Source: Escherichia coli (GTDB lineage: Bacteria > Pseudomonadota > Gammaproteobacteria > Enterobacterales > Enterobacteriaceae). Taken from it: DNA of 64,000 bases. Positions 4,778 to 42,569 of the stretch are shown here, in pieces (position 1 is the stretch's first letter; every line of letters starts with the position of its first letter). Below the pieces are notes generated by a model that saw only the letters and a program-made list of their open reading frames with translations, was not told the origin of the DNA and ran no database searches. The stretch is from NCBI RefSeq assembly GCF_048403405.1, contig NZ_CP183129.1. One strand, 5' to 3'. The translations under genes and the position numbers were made by a program.

Positions 4778-5059
4778 TCACATCCAGCCACGAAGTTGAT
4801 GCTCAACAGCAACCACGTATTCATCGAATAATGACGATATTTGCGAATCATTAATGATGCGCACGTTTACAAAATATCCGTCTTCCTTAACACATACCGG
4901 TTCGCCATCTTCAGTCAGTTCTCCGGTTTCTTTGTACACGTTACCTATCACGTCAATAAGAATATCATCCTGCATCAACTCGTCATCATAATAGCCAATG
5001 CTCTCCATAAAGGCCGAAAAGTCGGCCCTGTCGGGAAATTTGAGTGTTAAATCTTTCAT
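4778..5059 (-). CDS. Hypothetical protein between the two fibre genes
   Basis: 93-aa acidic ORF. Its ATG overlaps the stf stop (TAATG), which suggests translational coupling. It may be a fibre accessory or assembly factor. Confidence 0.5.
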   Translation of the reverse strand: MKDLTLKFPDRADFSAFMESIGYYDDELMQDDILIDVIGNVYKETGELTEDGEPVCVKEDGYFVNVRIINDSQISSLFDEYVVAVEHQLRGWM

Positions 5060-7434
5060 TAGATTGACTCCCCCACCTGAGCATCAGTCAATGCCTTGTG
5101 CCATATTCTGAAATTCCTTACATGACCAAATAAATGACGTAACCCGGCTGTAGTCTGGCCTCCAATACGGATAATTGCGGTGTTCTGAATACAGGACCAT
5201 GTGGTTTTTGTTTCGCTGGATATACGCCCGTTACTTACTGCGCATGTAGACTGATCAGACTTTACACGCATCCCCATAACCATTTTTTCAAGTGATGCAT
5301 TTTCGTTTATCCGTCTGTTAGACCCACCAATATCGCAATAAGGAAATCCGTCGTAATCTGCTGAAGAACCGAAGCCAAGAATAATAGCCGCTCCGGTTTG
5401 ATGACCGCCGGTATCAAAAACACGCGGTGCTGCATTTGGCGTTTTATACCAGTTCTTATGTACCTCACAAAGAACCGTAAAAGGAAGATTATAAAGATTA
5501 TTCTTAATGGGAACTGTGACTATATCGCTTGCGCGGGTCGCCGCCGTCGTTCCTGATATAATAAAAGATGATACACAAGGCCCATTTTCTACTTGTGGGG
5601 TGGCCAGATAAATATAGTCACCAGATACGGTTGCCCCGCCCTGCTTAGGAGAATACTGTATCTGAGAACCTATTTTTAACTCCCCATCAATTGCCTGAAT
5701 TGTTGCCTCTGCAAAAATCCATCCGATAACTTCGTCCTTTCTGACTCTCGCTGTAATCCTTGAGGCAGCGCCGCCTGTCATATTAATTTCAAGCGTTTGT
5801 GTATCAATATACACATCACCAAGAAAAGTTGTTGCGCTACCGTCATATTTATCAAATCGGATACGCAACCTTACCTGCAGTTCTGTTTTAAAACGACATG
5901 AGGTTGTCACGTATTTATTATCGCCTGAGACATCAACTGACTTTGTTGCAGCAATTGATGCCATATTAATGGCTGAGGTTTGCCCAATCAGAGAATCGTT
6001 ACAGACAAACTTTCCATAGGTAAAACCAAAACTATCCGTCCCGGTTTCGGGAACATCCATATTTGACGATCGCCCCCAACTGGCAGGGCTTTCCGAATTG
6101 AGCATGTAGTTCGTTCTTTGCCCCTCAATAAGCAGGCCATCACGTTCAAACCGTGGCTCGTCAATGGCAGCCTCTGTCAGCACACCAGATTTATTAATAT
6201 AGGTTGCTTTCGATGCGCGTTTAAACTTAACAACCTTGTCGCCAGGCATCGTTATTTCATCATCACCAATAACAATCTTTTTATATGACGGCGAAAAGCC
6301 CGTAATCATATCCAGCGAATCGTTAAATGGTATCCACACATCAGGCAGCGGCTGTAAGACATATTTATACGGCTCCGCAGCCTGGCTTGCGTACTCTCTG
6401 GCTGCATCTTCGCTTGCTTTAGCTGCCGTCTGGCTTGCTGCCGATGCTTTCGCTGAGTTCGCAGCCGCTGTTTCGCTCACCTTTGCGTTGGTTTCACTGG
6501 TTTTTGCTGCTTTTTGACTGTTAGCTGATGCAGTGGCAGAAGCAGCAGCCGCGCTTGCAGAACCAGCTGCAGCACTCTCGCTTTCGGCTGCTGCATCCTG
6601 ACTGCTTTTCGCCGCAGTTTCGCTGGCTTTGGCATTCGTTTCGCTGGTCTTCGCTGCCGTCTGGCTGGACTTTGCGTTAGTTTCACTCGTCTTCGCTGCT
6701 TTCTGACTGTTAGCCGCAGCAGTTGCTGATCCAGCAGCTGAAGTCGCAGAACCGGCTGCCGCGCTCTCGCTTTCGGCTGCTGCATCCTGACTGCTTTTCG
6801 CCGCAGTTTCACTGGCTTTGGCATTCGTTTCGCTGGTTTTCGCTGCCGTCTGGCTGGACTTTGCGTTGGTTTCGCTCGTCTTTGCGGCTGTCTCGCTATT
6901 TTTCGCGTTGGTTTCTGATTTTTTGGCTGCTGTCGCGGAGTTTTCTGATGCAGTCTGTGAGGTCGCTGCCGCCTGTGCACTATTAGCTGCATTCGTTTCT
7001 GAGGTTTTCGCCGCGTTCTTCGATGATGCCGCTGCAGTTTCGGATTTCTTTGCCGCCGCTGCGCTCTGAGAGGCGGCTTCGGCGTTGCGTGCCGCTTCTT
7101 CCACCATTTCCTCAAAACGACGCAATGCCTCCGGCATGACATCATCTTCCGTCATGGCACCGAGAAAATCATTCAGCGTACCTGGTCTGGAACCTTCATA
7201 GACGGTAATGGTTCCGGCATGTGAAGGCGGAAAACCTTCAACAAGCAGGATAACGCTGTACTGGCCATACTCAACATCCATGCTGTAACGCCCGGCTTCA
7301 TCCGGATTTTCAGAGGCCACCGTGTTCACCAGTACCGTGGTGCTGTTACGCTTTGCCTTCAGTTGAATAGTGCAGTTCTGTATTGGTTTTCCCGCACCAT
7401 CTTTCAGCACACCTGAGATTTTTACTGCTGCCAT
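5059..7434 (-). CDS. stf: Side tail fibre (lambda Stf-like N-terminus, divergent C-terminal receptor-binding part)
   Basis: The N-terminus MAAVKISGVLKDGAGKPIQNCTIQLKAKRNSTTV...GRYSMDVEYGQYSVIL matches remembered lambda Stf. The ATG at 7434 follows GGAG; the track ORF starts 2 codons earlier at GTG. There is an Ala/Ser/Thr repeat shaft. The C-terminus ends ...RNFRIWHKALTDAQV, typical of LamG/concanavalin-like domains. Confidence 0.85.
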   Translation of the reverse strand: MAAVKISGVLKDGAGKPIQNCTIQLKAKRNSTTVLVNTVASENPDEAGRYSMDVEYGQYSVILLVEGFPPSHAGTITVYEGSRPGTLNDFLGAMTEDDVMPEALRRFEEMVEEAARNAEAASQSAAAAKKSETAAASSKNAAKTSETNAANSAQAAATSQTASENSATAAKKSETNAKNSETAAKTSETNAKSSQTAAKTSETNAKASETAAKSSQDAAAESESAAAGSATSAAGSATAAANSQKAAKTSETNAKSSQTAAKTSETNAKASETAAKSSQDAAAESESAAAGSASAAAASATASANSQKAAKTSETNAKVSETAAANSAKASAASQTAAKASEDAAREYASQAAEPYKYVLQPLPDVWIPFNDSLDMITGFSPSYKKIVIGDDEITMPGDKVVKFKRASKATYINKSGVLTEAAIDEPRFERDGLLIEGQRTNYMLNSESPASWGRSSNMDVPETGTDSFGFTYGKFVCNDSLIGQTSAINMASIAATKSVDVSGDNKYVTTSCRFKTELQVRLRIRFDKYDGSATTFLGDVYIDTQTLEINMTGGAASRITARVRKDEVIGWIFAEATIQAIDGELKIGSQIQYSPKQGGATVSGDYIYLATPQVENGPCVSSFIISGTTAATRASDIVTVPIKNNLYNLPFTVLCEVHKNWYKTPNAAPRVFDTGGHQTGAAIILGFGSSADYDGFPYCDIGGSNRRINENASLEKMVMGMRVKSDQSTCAVSNGRISSETKTTWSCIQNTAIIRIGGQTTAGLRHLFGHVRNFRIWHKALTDAQVGESI
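6470..6888. repeat. 189-bp (63-codon) in-frame tandem repeat inside stf, 2 full copies plus a partial third
   Basis: Units start at 6888, 6699 and 6510 on the minus strand, each beginning AAKTSETNAK. The 20-mer ctttcggctgctgcatcctg recurs at 6581 and 6770. Confidence 0.85.
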
Positions 7435-8165: not shown

Positions 8166-11100
8166 TCAGCTGATACTGATGCCTGCGGTGGCTTTCTTCA
8201 TCACCACAACCAGCAAATCGCTGATACTTGCTGTGGGATACCAGTCATTTACCAGCCATGCTGACACCGAAAACTCCAGCGTCATGTGACCGTGACCGGC
8301 AGGCATATCAATAACGCCACTGTAAATCAGCGTATTATCCAGCGCGGTACGGTTATAAATTTCAGCACCGTTTTTCCGCACTATCAGACGGCATGAGGAG
8401 TAAATATCAGTATGCTCTCTCTCATGTTTAGCGCCGCTGAATGCCACCGCCGGAATAACAATCTGCCGGTCAAACGGCTGATCGTCATAAATCCTGACGG
8501 TAATGGTCCCTGATGGCCACCGTTCCGGTGCACGGGAGTCCCGGGGGAAAGCTTTGCCCACTGTTTTAACGAGATCGCCTTCAATCTGGTTCGCGGACAG
8601 TTTTCCCAGAACCCGGCAGTTCTCGTTAATCGTGACGTTGTTGAGCGTCCCGGAGTTCGCATTCACGTTACCGCTGATATCGGCATTTTTCGCCGTCAGC
8701 CGCCCGTCCGGTGTCAGGGAAAATGCCGGAGGATTACCGCCGCTGGTAATGGTGGGAGCCGTCAGATATTTCAGGAACACTTCATTCATAAATATCTGAT
8801 CGCCCTGACCAACAAACATCGGCTTTGTGTTGCCATTCGCAGGATTAACCATCGCAATCCTGTCCGCCGCCAGCAGCACCTGACTCTGCATACCGTCAGG
8901 AGTATTCTCAATACCGGCACCAATACCCGCGATATAAAGGCGTCCGTCCTGCATCTGCTGCAGCTTCACAGCCCACATGCTGTTCAGGTTATTATTTGTA
9001 TCAACCTGAACCTTCTGTATCTGCTGAATTACCGCACTCTGGTCTTCCAGTTTATTATTGACGGTCTGCGTGATTTCATTGCTGACATCCGTAATGGACG
9101 TCCTGATTTCAGCCAGGTCAGGCGCAAGCTGACCGTTATCAATCTGCGTCCACAGCTCCTGAGCCAGATGGCTTTTCCCTATCTCGCCTTTGAAAAAATC
9201 CAGATAGCCGGATGCATCATCACTCGGCTGGCCAACAGCCTCCACAAATGCCGATTTGCCAACGGTGTTCACACTGCGGATGTAAAAATAATAATCATGG
9301 CCCGGTTTGATATTGATACTGGTGGCTATCCAGTACAGCGCCGTGCCAAGATAGCGGGCTGTGGTTTCAACCTGCCTGATATCGGTAATCCGCGTTTCCG
9401 AGAACCAGAACTCAAACTGTACCGTCGGATCATAAACCGCAAGATGCGGCGTGGCAGTTATCTGAAAATAGCCCGGCGTCAGCTCAATCCGCGACGGCGC
9501 TGCCGGTGCGGCAATCCGGAACGATACCGATGCCGGATCGCCCTGCTGTCCCCACGCATTTACCGCCCGGACCGTCAGCGTGTAACGCCCCAGCGCCAGT
9601 TGCCTGAAGCGGTATGTGGTTTCCGTCGTCCTGGCCGTGCTGACCAGCCGCTCACTGCCGTCGTCCGCTGCCACGGTCAGGCGAAGCAGGAAGCTCACGC
9701 CCTTCACCACCTTCGGCGTGTCCCAGCGGGCCAGTACCTGATACTCCCCGCTGTCTGCGGTGACTTCGGCAGTCAGGTGCTGCACCGCTGGCGGCGTGAC
9801 ACCATTCACCGTGCCGCTCTGGTCACCGTCAAAGTGCGCCCCGTTATCCACGATGGCTTCTTTCTCCGGTACATGCTGCACGGCGGTGATGGCATACGTG
9901 CCATCGTCGTTCTCACGGATACTCACACAGCGGAACAGGCGCTGGCGCAGCGTCGGCAGCTTCAGCCCCCATACGCTGTATTCAGCAACACTGTCAGGAA
10001 CACGGCTCACTTTTACCTTCACGCCGTCGGTGACGGACTGAACCTCCACGCTGACCGGATTGCCACTTCCGTCAACCAGGCTTATCAGCGTGGTACCGGA
10101 GGATGGCAGCGTGATTTCACGGTCGAGCGTCAGCGTCCGGGTCTGGCTGTTCACCGCCAGTACACGACCACCGGTGCTGATACCGGCATAGTCATCATCA
10201 CAGATTTCAATAACATCGCCCGGTACATGGCGAAGCCCTTCTGCGCCGACGCTGAAATCCACGGTCTGCGTTTCCAGCAGTTCCGTTTTAATCAGCCACA
10301 GCCCGGCGCGGTGTGCCTGCCCCCGGCTGGTACAGCCAAAGGCATCCATCTTCGTGACGTTACGACCGTAACGGGCAATGGCCTGCGTGTCCTCCACAAG
10401 CTCTGTCGCCGTCTCCCAGCCGTTGTTCGGGTCAATCCAGTTCACCTCAACGGCATTATGGCGGTCCTTCAGGGCGCTGAAGCTGTAGCGGAACGGCGCG
10501 CCATCATCCGGCATCACCACATTACTGCGGTTATAGGTCCACACCTTATCCGACGGTCGGTCCTGCACGAATGTCAGCGTCTGCCCGTTCCATACCGGCA
10601 TACAGCGCATCGCCGAGCAGAAATCACTGAGCACATCCCACGCCTTGCGCTGTGTGGCCAGGTACGCATTACAGGTGATGCGCGGCTCCGTGCCGCCAAA
10701 ACCATCCGGCACCGACTGGTCGCAATACTGGCTGATGACATACAGCGCCCATTTATCCACATCTGCCGCACCAAGACGTTTCCCCATGCCGTAGCGCGGA
10801 TGGGTCAGCATATCCCACAGACACCAGGCCATGTTGTTGCTGTATGCTGGCTTAAACGTTCCGTCCCAGATACCGCTGTATTGCCGCGTCTGCGGGTTAT
10901 AGTTCGACGGCACCTGCAGAATGCGCCCGCGAAGATGATAATTACGGCTCACCTGCTGGCTGCCGAACTGCTCCGAATCCACCTGCACGCCGACCAGTGC
11001 CGTGTTCGGGTAGCACTGTTTCACATCGATGATTTCGGTGTATGACGACCAGAGCGTTTTGTTCTGCAGCTGGTCTGTGGTGCTGTCCGGCGTCATTCTG

Positions 11101-39131: not shown

Positions 39132-39950
39132 TTATCCCCTGAATCCTGCCGGGATCTGGCTGTAGTCCACGTTGTCGTAACTGGCTTTGAAGTACGGGTC
39201 CTCGCGTCTGGCTGCAGATACCGCAGGAACTTCCCAGGATTCTTCGAAATGACGATCCGGACCAAAGAACGTGACAGCCTGTTTCACAAATTGTGTGCCG
39301 CTGTTACCCATCGCAGATACCCAGCCCGCGTAGCGTTTCACACCTTCCAGCATGGTTTCGGGTTTTACCCCCTCATTCAAACGGGCTTTCCAGGCTTTGA
39401 AGGCTGCAGATTTTGAATTGCCACCAGCACGTTTGGGGTATGCCAGCCATGCCTGCTCAAACTCCGGAGAGTATTCCGGTCGGTTTGAACGAACTCGCAC
39501 AGACTCATCAGCAGATGCACCAACAGCTATTGGTTCATTGACTGGTTCTTTGACTGGTTCAAAAGAGTGACTGGTTCTGGGTGAATCTCCTGCACCACCC
39601 CCTGGTGCAACTCCTGCACTACCTGGTGAATTTGCTGCACCAGATAGTGAATTATTTGCACTACCCCCTAGTGAATCTCCTGCACCATCAAGATGAAGGA
39701 GATAGATATTACTTGAGTTACCTTTTTCACCTTTCCGGGTGACTTTTTTTACCAGCCCGGAATCACAAAGGGCCGCAATATGATTCATCACAGAACGTTT
39801 GCTAATCTCGCACTGGTCAGCAATATGCTGGTAGCTGGGCCAGCACTCACCCTGATCGCTGGCATTATCAGCCAGCTTGATCAGAACCAGTTTTCGCAAT
39901 GGATTACCCACTCGAATTTTCATCGCTTTAACCATCAGCTCCATACTCAT
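39132..39950 (-). CDS. Replication initiator (O-like; N-terminal wHTH, internal iterons, DnaT-like C-terminal tail)
   Basis: The ATG at 39950 follows GGAGG and overlaps the upstream stop (ATGA). The wHTH is ...LVLIKLADNASDQGECWPSYQHIADQCEISKRSVMNHIAAL.... The protein ends ...DYSQIPAGFRG. Confidence 0.7.
   Translation of the reverse strand: MSMELMVKAMKIRVGNPLRKLVLIKLADNASDQGECWPSYQHIADQCEISKRSVMNHIAALCDSGLVKKVTRKGEKGNSSNIYLLHLDGAGDSLGGSANNSLSGAANSPGSAGVAPGGGAGDSPRTSHSFEPVKEPVNEPIAVGASADESVRVRSNRPEYSPEFEQAWLAYPKRAGGNSKSAAFKAWKARLNEGVKPETMLEGVKRYAGWVSAMGNSGTQFVKQAVTFFGPDRHFEESWEVPAVSAARREDPYFKASYDNVDYSQIPAGFRG
39580..39687. repeat. Five ~18-bp iterons (candidate ori) inside the O-like gene
   Basis: (G/A)GTG(A/C)A(A/T)NT(C/T/A)(C/G/T)(T/C)TGCAC(C/T)A occurs at 39580, 39604, 39625, 39646 and 39670, spaced 21-24 bp. 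Three GACTGGTTC repeats precede it at 39535-39578. Confidence 0.65.
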
Positions 39951-40183
39951 GCTGCACCTCCGAGATGCTTCATGTTTTTTCCGGAGCAAAAGGCTATAAG
40001 CGGCATACTGATGCGGTAATTACGGCCCAGCGGTTCACAAATCACCTTCTGACATTCACGGTCAACCAGGCTAACACGTAGAACATGCCCTGCAGGCGTG
40101 GTGTACCACTGCCCAACTGTAGGAATTGATGTTTTTTTACGCTGAAGCAAACGGCAAATATTGAGGATCAACGGATTAAGCAT
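39947..40183 (-). CDS. Hypothetical protein (78 aa)
   Basis: Both ends overlap neighbouring genes (8 nt upstream, ATGA downstream). I recognise no family. Confidence 0.5.
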   Translation of the reverse strand: MLNPLILNICRLLQRKKTSIPTVGQWYTTPAGHVLRVSLVDRECQKVICEPLGRNYRISMPLIAFCSGKNMKHLGGAA

Positions 40184-41012
40184 GACGATGCCCTCCGCTG
40201 ATATTCAGGAGACGGTGAATATGAAAATTAGCCTTATCCGCCAGACGAATACGTTCAGCCTGCAAGTTAAGAAGGGTTTCTACCAAAACCTGATGCGCCT
40301 GCGGATCCGAAAGAGTTACCTTGCGCAGAGCACGTAGTGCAGTTGTTACATAACTGAGTTTATGTAAGTCTTCATCATTCAGACGAGTGAGGGCTGGGAC
40401 AGTAGCCATGATGGCAGCCTCCGATAACAGTGAATTACCTTCACCACCGGAAACGCCAATTTCGCTGGTGGTGAACTGAACGGGGTTGGCGTAACCGGCG
40501 TTATCGGAAACCGGCGCACCTTTCGGTGCCCCCGTCCAGCCCACCATAATTTGGGTGTGCACAGACGCAGACGATAAAAAAGACGCTGGCGCGTCATATA
40601 TCGCCGATAACATTTCCAGGACGCCAATCCCGTCACCCGCTTTATAAGGTGCCTGAACAGTGTAACGTCCCGGAATGGCAGAATCAATGTGCTGGTGGTC
40701 CTTCACACTCAACAAAATCACGCCTGAATTTCCACAAAGGACTAAAGCACTCATGCGGGTAGTCTTTGCGAAGATAGATAACGCGCTGTGTTTCTGGTTC
40801 CCAACGAATAACATGGACATAAAGCCCTCTTCCGTCACGAAACCAGCGGTTAAGTTCCCGCACAACTCGCCCCCCACAGTCAGGTAAAGTTCTCTGTGGT
40901 TACTTACAGCCAGGTAATTTGGTAATCTGCATTCATGCCGTAACAACAGGTGTTCAGCGACACTGACCACCAGCTGTTGCGACAAACGGTTATTTGCCGT
41001 TAAACTGTTCAT
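40176..41012 (-). CDS. Hypothetical protein (278 aa)
   Basis: The start overlaps the cII-like stop (ATGA). I recognise no family. Confidence 0.6.
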   Translation of the reverse strand: MNSLTANNRLSQQLVVSVAEHLLLRHECRLPNYLAVSNHRELYLTVGGELCGNLTAGFVTEEGFMSMLFVGNQKHSALSIFAKTTRMSALVLCGNSGVILLSVKDHQHIDSAIPGRYTVQAPYKAGDGIGVLEMLSAIYDAPASFLSSASVHTQIMVGWTGAPKGAPVSDNAGYANPVQFTTSEIGVSGGEGNSLLSEAAIMATVPALTRLNDEDLHKLSYVTTALRALRKVTLSDPQAHQVLVETLLNLQAERIRLADKANFHIHRLLNISGGHRHA

Positions 41013-41572
41013 GCGTTAGTTTCTCCACAGACACAAAACGCCACGACGCCCGGAGCTGCACACTCGCGGGCGTCACTCTTTTCTGGAGCGCAAAAGATTT
41101 TGTAGACCAGTGCTGCATGCTCTTGGAGCTTCGAAATTGACAGATACAACTCATCATTAATTGCTGTCTGCTCGTGTGGCTCCACGACCCCATCTTCGAT
41201 TGCCGAACGAATCTGCTTTGAGTAATTCCCGATCTGTTCGATGACTTCCAGCAGGCGCTGGTTTATATCGGCGTTCTCTACTTCCTCAATTTCAGGAAGC
41301 GATACGAACACCCCACCAGCAGACTGTGCGACAGCATCCGCAATGTAGTGAGTGCCAGCCGCGCGCTGTAAAACCATTGCCCATCCCAGCGGGAAAATCT
41401 GATCGCCATCGGCACGAAGGCGGTTAAATAATGCGTTCTCTGTTACATCCAGCCAGTCAGCTGCTTCAGCGTAACCACCCGGCAACGCTGCGATAGTTTT
41501 TCTGACAGCTTTCACGTACCACTCAGGCTGTTTTTCTACTTTCCAGTGATACTTACCCACGGTTAGCCTCAT
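41009..41572 (-). CDS. Phage regulatory CII-family protein (CP76 type)
   Basis: 187 aa, immediately downstream of cro-like. ...YAEAADWLDVTENALFNRLRADGDQIFPLGWAMVLQRAAG... is as I remember for the PF06892 family. Confidence 0.6.
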   Translation of the reverse strand: MRLTVGKYHWKVEKQPEWYVKAVRKTIAALPGGYAEAADWLDVTENALFNRLRADGDQIFPLGWAMVLQRAAGTHYIADAVAQSAGGVFVSLPEIEEVENADINQRLLEVIEQIGNYSKQIRSAIEDGVVEPHEQTAINDELYLSISKLQEHAALVYKIFCAPEKSDARECAAPGVVAFCVCGETNA

Positions 41573-41894: not shown

Positions 41895-42569
41895 ATGAAA
41901 ACAATCCATGACATCCGGCGGTCTAACGCCAGAAAACTGAGAGATGGTGTTGGCGGAAATTCATCCTTTGCCACCATGATTGATCGCGAGCCAACCCAAA
42001 CCAGCAGGTTTATGGGGGATGGCGCTACTAAAAATATCGGTGACAGCATGGCACGGCACATCGAAAAATGTTTCGACCTGCCTGTCGGATGGCTTGATCA
42101 AGAACACCAGACAACGAACATCACAAAAAAACCTGATGTTTCAATCACTAACAAACAAATAACGTTAGTCCCTGTCATATCATGGGTACAGGCCGGAGCA
42201 TGGAAAGAAGTTGGCTATTCTGAGGTTGATTTGAGCACAGCAGAAACGTATCCCTGCCCTGTACCCTGTGGCGAAATGACTTATATCTTGCGGGTGATTG
42301 GTGATTCAATGATTGATGAGTACCGCCCTGGAGACATGATTTTTGTTGATCCCGAAGTCCCTGCCTGCCACGGTGACGACGTTATTGCATTGATGCACGA
42401 TACAGGCGAAACCACCTTCAAGCGATTGATAGAAGATGGAACACAGCGTTATCTCAAAGCATTAAACCCAAACTGGCCTGAGCCTTACATTAAGATTAAC
42501 GGTAATTGCTCTATAATTGGTACAGTGATTTTCTCGGGAAAACCAAGAAGATACACAATAAAGGCCTAA
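41895..42569 (+). CDS. cI: CI-type repressor (HTH + S24 LexA-like autopeptidase domain)
   Basis: 224 aa. It has an Ala-Gly cleavage-site context (VQAGAW), a catalytic Ser (VIGDSM) and a Lys (TFKRL). Confidence 0.88.
   Translation: MKTIHDIRRSNARKLRDGVGGNSSFATMIDREPTQTSRFMGDGATKNIGDSMARHIEKCFDLPVGWLDQEHQTTNITKKPDVSITNKQITLVPVISWVQAGAWKEVGYSEVDLSTAETYPCPVPCGEMTYILRVIGDSMIDEYRPGDMIFVDPEVPACHGDDVIALMHDTGETTFKRLIEDGTQRYLKALNPNWPEPYIKINGNCSIIGTVIFSGKPRRYTIKA

Follow-up and report, generated by a model that had tools for sequence, protein, structure and literature searches.

The region considered here lies in a 64-kb window of Escherichia coli DNA (contig NZ_CP183129.1; "the window" denotes the whole stretch analysed), the prophage of which is of the SfV/2H10-like type. 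Between a YmfL/CP76-type cII-like gene and the replication initiator gene, this prophage has a continuous open reading frame (ORF) of 278 codons and a second one of 78 codons (ORF78). We consider it likely that the region is a P4-type RNA immunity and licensing module which, in this SfV-like lambdoid prophage, forms part of the early-right operon and directly precedes the initiator gene. The 278-codon frame is a composite of several elements and not one unknown protein. It comprises, in this order, a part homologous to YmfM, a nested DUF4222 gene, a predicted promoter, a small RNA (sRNA) of the IsrK type, a C4 RNA, and an in-frame ORF of 77 codons (ORF77). The initial annotation of this stretch had placed the 278- and 78-codon ORFs between the cII-like and initiator genes with overlaps of 4, 8 and 4 nucleotides (nt), and these positions and overlaps were all confirmed; its remaining observations hold in part, and its interpretation is likewise supported in part. 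The elements are as follows.

40176–41012, minus strand: continuous 278-codon frame, an eta-like "conduit" ORF
40722–41012, minus strand: YmfM-homologous part, codons 1–97 of the long frame (BLASTP to e14 YmfM)
40684–40863, minus strand, -1 frame within the YmfM part: DUF4222 gene, 59 amino acids (aa), GTG start (PF13973)
40659–40687, minus strand: predicted sigma-70 promoter, equivalent of PisrK and P4 PLE (read from the sequence)
40576–40652, minus strand: IsrK/P4-seqA-type sRNA (Rfam RF01394)
40464–40551, minus strand: C4/P4-CI-type antisense RNA (Rfam RF01695)
40415–40463, minus strand: downstream target sites a2 (40453–40460, ATTGGCGT) and b2 (40415–40429, TGTTATCGGAGGCTG)
40176–40409, minus strand: ORF77, 77 aa, nested in the 3'-terminal part of the long frame and in the same register, with its ATG at 40409, in the Kil/antirepressor slot
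39947–40183, minus strand: ORF78, 78 codons (phrog_1153; PHROG E value 6e-42)
39132–39950, minus strand: replication initiator, with a winged helix-turn-helix (HTH_36/DnaD_N) and a DnaD-like C-terminal region (Pfam and PHROG matches)

The middle of the long frame is occupied by two RNA genes. The IsrK-type RNA matches RF01394 over model positions 1–77 of 77 (55.4 bits against a gathering score of 50; E value 2e-10) and ends in an intrinsic terminator in mid-ORF, with a stem at 40582–40595 followed by a U-run. The C4-type RNA matches RF01695 over model positions 1–87 of 87 (82.8 bits against a gathering score of 45; E value 6e-16). The first of these includes one copy of each of two target sequences, a1 (40621–40628, ATTGGCGT) and b1 (40604–40612, TGTTATCGG), while the second contains the b' loop TTTCCGATAACG (40499–40510) and the a' element ACGCCAA (40486–40492). 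The loop is complementary both to b1 in isrK and to the b2 sequence TGTTATCGGAGG located 36 nt after C4, and a' matches the copies of ATTGGCGT that flank C4 on either side. Within b2 is the Shine-Dalgarno sequence of ORF77 (GGAGG, 40418–40422), 8 nt upstream of the ATG; the core of this start context is GGAGGCTGCCATCATGGCTAC, and the distance from C4 to the ATG is 54 nt. The initial annotation had treated the 278-codon frame as a single gene, and this does not hold: the frame overlaps a DUF4222 gene in another frame as well as, on its own strand, the two RNA genes matched by Rfam.

Upstream of the IsrK-type RNA, the predicted promoter includes a -35 hexamer TTGATT (40682–40687), which overlaps the DUF4222 stop codon, a 17-nt spacer, and a -10 hexamer TACACT (40659–40664), with position +1 at 40652. 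More than 120 viral contigs share this conserved promoter block. We infer that it is active by analogy with Gifsy-1 PisrK (PMC4825925) and P4 PLE (PMC10111431).

A pattern scan of viral contigs yielded 125 such modules, which fall into 15 sequence alleles and ~9 loop specificity classes. In all classes except one, the pairing of the loop with the b1 and b2 of the same allele extends over 9–12 bp, and pairing scores are 9–11 for cognate as compared with 4.5–7.5 for non-cognate combinations; the exception is allele 3, which pairs over 7 bp only and whose score (6.5) does not stand out. The loop, b1 and b2 co-vary in the window, mEp460 and ST64B. This three-way covariation is direct comparative evidence for a functional, allele-specific pairing, which is what an immunity determinant should show. 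The sequences of mEp460 and ST64B are 97% and 78% identical, respectively, to the window up to mid-isrK and again from codon 24 of ORF78; between these points both are unrelated to the window except for the block extending from the Shine-Dalgarno sequence to the ATG, and they carry other C4 alleles which match their own b1 and b2.

The mosaic boundaries in mid-isrK and at ORF78 codon 24 (window 40114–40629) are sharp. The cassette is swapped as a unit between phages that are otherwise 97–98% identical, and ORF78 differs at its N-terminus according to which gene precedes it. Tandem isrK-C4-antirepressor modules, ~865 nt apart and with different C4 alleles, are also found (contig L121, 6564–8787; also L130, L160 and L169); all are chained through ATGA, and the second long ORF opens with an ORF78-like N-terminus.

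The 278-codon frame is free of stops in 15 of 15 cassette alleles, from isrK +1 to the end of b2, terminator and C4 included, a count which overstates independence and to that extent speaks against our reading, because the alleles share recombined blocks and so are not fully independent. In the same 15 alleles (15/15) the open frame continues in register into the gene that follows, more often a Rha-type antirepressor than ORF77. Each of the remaining five frames has 0–7 stops across the cassette, and the probability of finding no stop is ~0.08 per allele by dinucleotide shuffle. The openness of the long frame thus exceeds chance.

Protein-like evolution is seen only in the first ~56–97 and the last 77 codons of the long frame. 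Ratios of nonsynonymous to synonymous polymorphism (pN/pS) were obtained from 61 unique close relatives as sums of comparisons to the window sequence as one reference, and are descriptive. For the segment formed by isrK, C4 and the target sites, read in the frame of the 278-codon ORF, pN/pS is 2.15. This segment coincides exactly with the part of the long frame (aa 117–210) that matches the Pfam family Phage_ASH (PF10554; 63.5 bits against a gathering score of 26; E value 3e-17), and other matches of the frame are to phrog_3960/821, labelled "transcriptional regulator". With these matches, and with ORF78 belonging to phrog_1153, the earlier statement that neither ORF resembles any family is overturned. 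It has been assumed in the annotation of SfV (orf37), of 2H10 and of the PHROGs that the 278-codon ORF is one conventional "Ash family" regulator or antirepressor, in which case the RNA matches would be incidental. Both the strength of the family matches and the openness of the frame in every allele agree with such a protein; however, we regard it as very improbable, given the pN/pS of the matching segment, the composition of that segment from two full-length Rfam matches above their gathering scores plus an intrinsic terminator, and the presence of the DUF4222 gene (pN/pS 0.15) in the other frame of the N-terminal third. Moreover, the P4 member of the family is an obsolete cI ORF: in a control with P4, the Ash model matches this ORF at the place at which the C4 model locates the CI RNA. 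The Pfam Ash match is a translation of RNA genes.

The real epsilon of P4 belongs to PF25738 and not to PF10554, as seen when P4 8168–8584 and 7888–8175 were compared. A survey of P4-like satellites took PF10554 as the marker of epsilon (bioRxiv 10.1101/2021.03.30.437493); because PF10554 falls on the P4 cI ORF, that survey probably detected the CI RNA locus instead.

The geometry of the region matches that of the eta/kil-CI module of P4, which makes an RNA immunity gate its likely function. In P4, the alpA homologue ORF88 ends in a TGA that overlaps the start codon (ATG) of eta, a 199-codon frame which runs through seqA (isrK model, 8615–8692) and CI (C4 model) on the same strand. Copies of the a and b targets flank C4 on both sides, a short gene (the 65-aa kil, starting MATTLTP) is nested in frame, and replication genes are located downstream. 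The GGAGGCTGCCATCATGGCTAC start context and the 54-nt distance from C4 to the ATG are identical in kil and ORF77. In both elements there is an 8-nt overlap between the end of the long frame and the gene after it (GTGCGTAA in P4; ATGCTTAA in the window, at 40176–40183, where the end of the 278-codon frame and of ORF77 overlaps the start of ORF78). There are also differences. Unlike the satellite P4, the window element is a lambdoid prophage and has a CI/Cro/cII-like switch; its long ORF is extended 5' by the YmfM homologue, within which DUF4222 occupies another frame; isrK and C4 are 24 nt apart as compared with 107 nt in P4; and ORF77 is not homologous to Kil. Downstream, the window has ORF78 and an O/DnaD-like initiator, whereas P4 has epsilon and the alpha primase-helicase.

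According to the account of eta in PMC10111431, which refers to Forti et al. (1999, J Bacteriol 181:5225) for a constitutive promoter inside eta, the transcripts that start within eta are quickly terminated through CI/seqA interactions and are the source of CI RNA, so that Kil is translated only upon occasional read-through. In the same account (PMC10111431), full-length Eta is translated only from an upstream promoter and is coupled to the alpA homologue, and its translation prevents termination and leads to expression of the downstream replication genes.

By homology with P4, P1 and Gifsy-1, a corresponding sequence of promoter activity, RNA processing, termination and translational effects may be proposed for the window. 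In the lysogen, PR would be off and only the internal promoter, constitutive under this model, would be active. Since its transcripts lack the start at 41012, they would be expected to fold, to end mostly at the IsrK terminator, and to yield processed C4. The a' and b' elements of C4 would then pair with a1/b1 and a2/b2, covering the Shine-Dalgarno sequence of ORF77 and favouring premature termination as in P4, with the result that ORF77, ORF78 and the initiator would be kept off, and a superinfecting phage of the same allele would be blocked in trans. Upon induction, ribosomes arriving from cro and ymfL would re-initiate at 41012 and read straight through the RNA genes. This translation would melt the RNA structures, prevent both pairing and termination, and pass ribosomes on to ORF78 through the 8-nt overlap and from there to the initiator through the 4-nt one. 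In the initial annotation, the chain of overlaps from the cII-like gene to the initiator was taken to impose co-expression in fixed stoichiometry. The translational chaining is real, conserved and probably functional; the fixed stoichiometry is not borne out, in that the coupling looks like a gate of the eta/kil kind.

A second relative is the isrK-orf45-anrP module of Gifsy-1 in Salmonella, for which IsrK, translation of orf45 over a C4-type RNA, and coupling into the antirepressor gene have been shown experimentally (PMC4825925). As in the window, an IsrK RNA with a terminator is followed by read-through into a frame that extends over a C4-type RNA (orf45/STnc1160), and translation is coupled into the next gene. 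The Gifsy-1 module differs in its position 3' of a Q-like gene and in orf45, which has its own stop (AUGA) and is not fused in frame; in the window, ORF77 fills the slot and the coupled frames lead on to the replication initiator. Positive control after the model of Gifsy-1, in which the IsrK-like RNA in trans would open an inactive read-through transcript for ORF77 and, by coupling, for ORF78 and the initiator, would make the module an induction trigger and not an immunity lock. The match to the isrK model, the shared arrangement of isrK, "orf45" (equivalent to C4) and a Shine-Dalgarno sequence with ATG, and the experimental basis of the mechanism (PMC4825925) make such control possible, but we think it rather unlikely to be the main mode, as the same elements form an immunity system in P4 (PMC10111431). 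Furthermore, the many loop/target specificity alleles are what would be expected of an immunity determinant, although the two modes are not mutually exclusive.

The immI region of P1 and P7 (c4-icd-ant) is a third example. Its C4 RNA is processed from the operon transcript and the loops pair with flanking sites. One of these sites overlies the ribosome-binding site of a small initial gene, and the genes that follow are coupled to it; heteroimmune alleles differ in loop and target. In P1, c4 is a repressor, which also counts against positive control. Unlike in P1 and P7, the regulated downstream gene in the window is the replication initiator.

Besides the shared blocks mentioned above, several points weigh against a P4-type immunity module. 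The internal promoter matches the consensus at only 8 of 12 positions and, for this reason, falls below the threshold of a promoter scanner, which did not report it. The pN/pS values are single-reference sums and are not phylogenetically corrected. A BLASTP comparison of ORF77 with the eta/kil frame of P4 gave no alignment, and there is no similarity beyond the first residues. Finally, the short IsrK RNA of Gifsy-1 activates, and does not repress, downstream translation in trans (PMC4825925), so that the sign of regulation in the window could differ or be mixed.

The 5' part of the long frame is a statistically clean case of dual coding by ymfM and DUF4222. Codons 1–89 share 32% identity (E value 2e-7) with YmfM of e14, and the synteny is the same, including the junction with ymfL. 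A start M(N/T)SLT at the ATGA junction with the CP76 gene is kept in 7 phage loci and, among 45 genomes representing about a dozen genera, in ~43. In the N-terminal 56 codons, which do not overlap DUF4222, pN/pS is 0.32 in the YmfM frame as compared with 1.2 and 1.4 in the other two. The nested gene matches PF13973 (50.9 bits against a gathering score of 27; E value 1e-13) and is also called by the Prokaryotic Genome Annotation Pipeline (PGAP); across DUF4222, a pN/pS of 0.15 for the gene's own frame contrasts with 9.5 for that of the 278-codon ORF. Its homologues (n = 51) have 57–95% identity and a constant length. In a survey of 45 unique loci from about a dozen genera, the YmfM-frame ORF preceded the start of DUF4222 by 55–59 codons and terminated ~20 nt short of the DUF4222 stop codon. 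No stop interrupts the YmfM frame across the initial 153 nt of DUF4222 in 44 of 44 unique sequences, where 2.6 would be expected after synonymous randomisation, and all 172 Leu and Val codons of DUF4222 able to create a stop in the YmfM frame (172/172) use NNT or NNC. The avoidance of stops and the N-terminal pN/pS of 0.32 indicate that both ymfM and DUF4222 are maintained.

Two other explanations of the nested frames were rejected. That the YmfM frame is a mis-annotated DUF4222, a view based on the occurrence of window–e14 substitutions at DUF4222 third positions, is incompatible with the stop avoidance and the N-terminal pN/pS. A programmed -1 frameshift at G_GGG_GGC joining the two frames is contradicted by the absence of the heptamer from e14 and other loci, and by the start codon of DUF4222 itself, which is conserved (ATG in most genera) and in e14 is preceded by an AAGGAG Shine-Dalgarno sequence. 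The G_GGG_GGC heptamer at 40866–40873 is in the slippery-site register of the long frame and lies just 5' of the DUF4222 GTG. As it is absent from e14 and the other loci, it is more likely a G-rich Shine-Dalgarno sequence.

On DNA identical to that of the window, in E. coli YDC107, RefSeq/PGAP annotates the 59-aa DUF4222 gene (40684–40863) and a 181-aa "ash family protein" from a GTG at 40721. Apart from this annotation, we see little to recommend a model limited to those two products, without translation from the ATG at 41012, and give it scant credence. The conservation of the YmfM-frame ORF at the ATGA junction, the pN/pS of its N-terminal part, and the strict avoidance of stops over DUF4222 all argue against it, and the 181-aa protein would start within a region that lacks protein-level constraint.

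The backbone cI-cro-ymfL-ymfM/DUF4222-rep of the window, with its ATGA junction, MNSLT start and relative DUF4222 frame, is the same as that of ymfL-ymfM-oweE in e14. The layout cI-cro-CP76-[ymfM with nested DUF4222]-rep is found in e14 and in prophages of Klebsiella, Kosakonia and Kluyvera. Unlike the window, e14 and ~50 similar loci are without the isrK-C4-ORF77-ORF78 cassette; in these, YmfM ends ~10 nt before the ATG of rep, and the stop of DUF4222 overlaps that ATG, as is characteristic of e14-type loci. In the RefSeq annotation of K-12 (e14, 4823–5180), ymfM is annotated and the nested DUF4222 ORF in the -1 frame is not. This e14 ORF has a TTG start, the AAGGAG sequence mentioned above, and a stop that overlaps the ATG of oweE.

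YmfM has been described as SfiC, the division inhibitor of e14, expression of which is known, for the e14 clone only, to block Z-ring formation and cause filamentation (bioRxiv 10.1101/2020.11.19.390815). The initial annotation had offered host takeover as an alternative role for the inserted genes, and this fits, since part of the frame is homologous to that inhibitor. The published ymfM clone consists of the whole ORF, including the nested DUF4222, without frame control (bioRxiv 10.1101/2020.11.19.390815). Because it carries both ORFs in this way, the SfiC activity could belong to either the YmfM or the DUF4222 product. We put forward, as a tentative proposal that we would sooner expect to fail than to hold, that the initiator is licensed by an 837-nt conduit frame in which being translated, and not most of the content, is what matters; that this frame is a fusion of YmfM, dual-coding with DUF4222, to the RNA cassette; that the initiator and everything downstream of it, including Q, need PR transcripts; and that the SOS-inducible SfiC activity is wholly or partly due to DUF4222.

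ORF77 is under strong constraint as judged from its pN/pS of 0.04, and is intact in 61 of 61 unique relatives. Homology searches returned only near-identical copies, all in SfV-like phages, and no match was found in Pfam or NCBIfam, and hence no homologue of ant1/2 or icd. The AlphaFold2 model is a helical hairpin with a predicted local distance difference test score (pLDDT) of 83, and a fold search found only generic helical hairpins. In most relatives, including mEp460 and ST64B, the corresponding slot holds a Rha-type antirepressor. Our best guess is that ORF77 is a small antirepressor or a Kil-like host effector.

ORF78 is a real small beta-barrel protein. Read in the frame of this ORF, pN/pS is 0.52, and changes are most frequent at the third codon positions (22 as compared with 11 and 7 at the other two). 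AlphaFold2 predicts an N-terminal helix and a five-stranded SH3/KOW-like beta-barrel (pLDDT 82.5), for which a fold search gave only generic SH3/KOW/Tudor barrels with E values above 1e-3. A profile search of 1.84 billion representatives indicated a narrow family and found no link to DUF4222; a diverged DUF4222 paralogue was considered and rejected, the hhalign comparison being not significant (E value 0.07, probability 0.8%).

The initial annotation had suggested that the two inserted ORFs are a helicase-recruitment or replication accessory pair. For the long frame, this was set aside by the IsrK-like and C4 RNAs that make up its middle. It could still be argued that the inserted ORFs assist the initiator as accessory factors, or that ORF78 at least does so, for example by recruiting the host helicase in place of a P/DnaC-type loader, as ORF78 is always immediately 5' of rep with an ATGA overlap (39947–39950, where its stop meets the initiator start) and no loader gene exists downstream. 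We nevertheless consider this improbable. ORF78 is present in 92 of 96 cassette-bearing loci and in none of 50 cassette-free DUF4222 loci, 36 of which, from other species, have the same type of rep directly after DUF4222. The initiator therefore does not need ORF78, which tracks the cassette and not the initiator, and so belongs to the former and not to the replication machinery. In addition, profile searches of Pfam, PHROG and NCBIfam gave no loader or helicase family homology for the inserted ORFs, the fold of ORF78 is generic with no significant relative of known function, and the initiator itself has a DnaD-like C-terminal region.

In its kind, the system is known, namely a C4 RNA module of the P4/P1/Gifsy type with nested translation in the style of eta/kil, in a widespread family of lambdoid prophages. 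What is new is the dual coding of ymfM and DUF4222 and the placement of the module ahead of a lambdoid rep gene. We found no published description of such a module directly ahead of a lambdoid initiator or of an in-frame YmfM fusion, nor of ymfM/DUF4222 dual coding or the ORF77 and ORF78 proteins. A 2022 survey of the regulatory regions of Shiga toxin (Stx) phages listed the Ash domain as of unknown function (PMC8951638). The reading as a P4-type RNA switch would correct the labels currently in use, i.e., "ash family protein", "transcriptional regulator" and "putative antirepressor". Such a switch would imply a second, allele-specific layer of immunity which gates replication and, probably, the induction of phages that carry Stx or cytolethal distending toxin (Cdt) genes, and it would explain the mosaic swapping of alleles between related phages. 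With the nested ymfM/DUF4222 pair, it has to be asked again which of the two products acts as SfiC, the inhibitor of cell division.

The region of the window is 100% identical to the prophage of E. coli YDC107 and 97–99.8% identical to phages 2H10, Ayreon and SfV (orf36–orf39). At least 80% of the sequence is present in 584 of 5426 complete E. coli genomes, and the same sequence is found in SfV and in Stx2c- and cdt-converting phages. The genes upstream of the long frame are as follows.

41895–42569, plus strand: cI, ymfK-like
Between cI and the YmfL/CP76 gene in gene order, minus strand: cro, ymfT-like
41009–41572, minus strand: YmfL/CP76-type cII-like gene (PF06892, E value 1e-14; NCBIfam YmfL, E value 2e-50; pN/pS 0.14)

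The TGA of the last of these overlaps the ATG of the long frame in the sequence ATGA at 41009–41012. It had been noted earlier that no P-, DnaC- or DnaB-type gene is found 3' of the initiator, and this is correct; the genes located there are, in order, PerC, Dam, LexA-like, RusA, KilA-N, DUF968 and Q. Within the linker-coding part of the initiator gene, at 39581–39685, there are 5–6 imperfect direct repeats of 21–24 nt (CTGGTGAATyTsCTGCAC-like), which are probably the iterons of an origin inside the gene, like that in lambda O.

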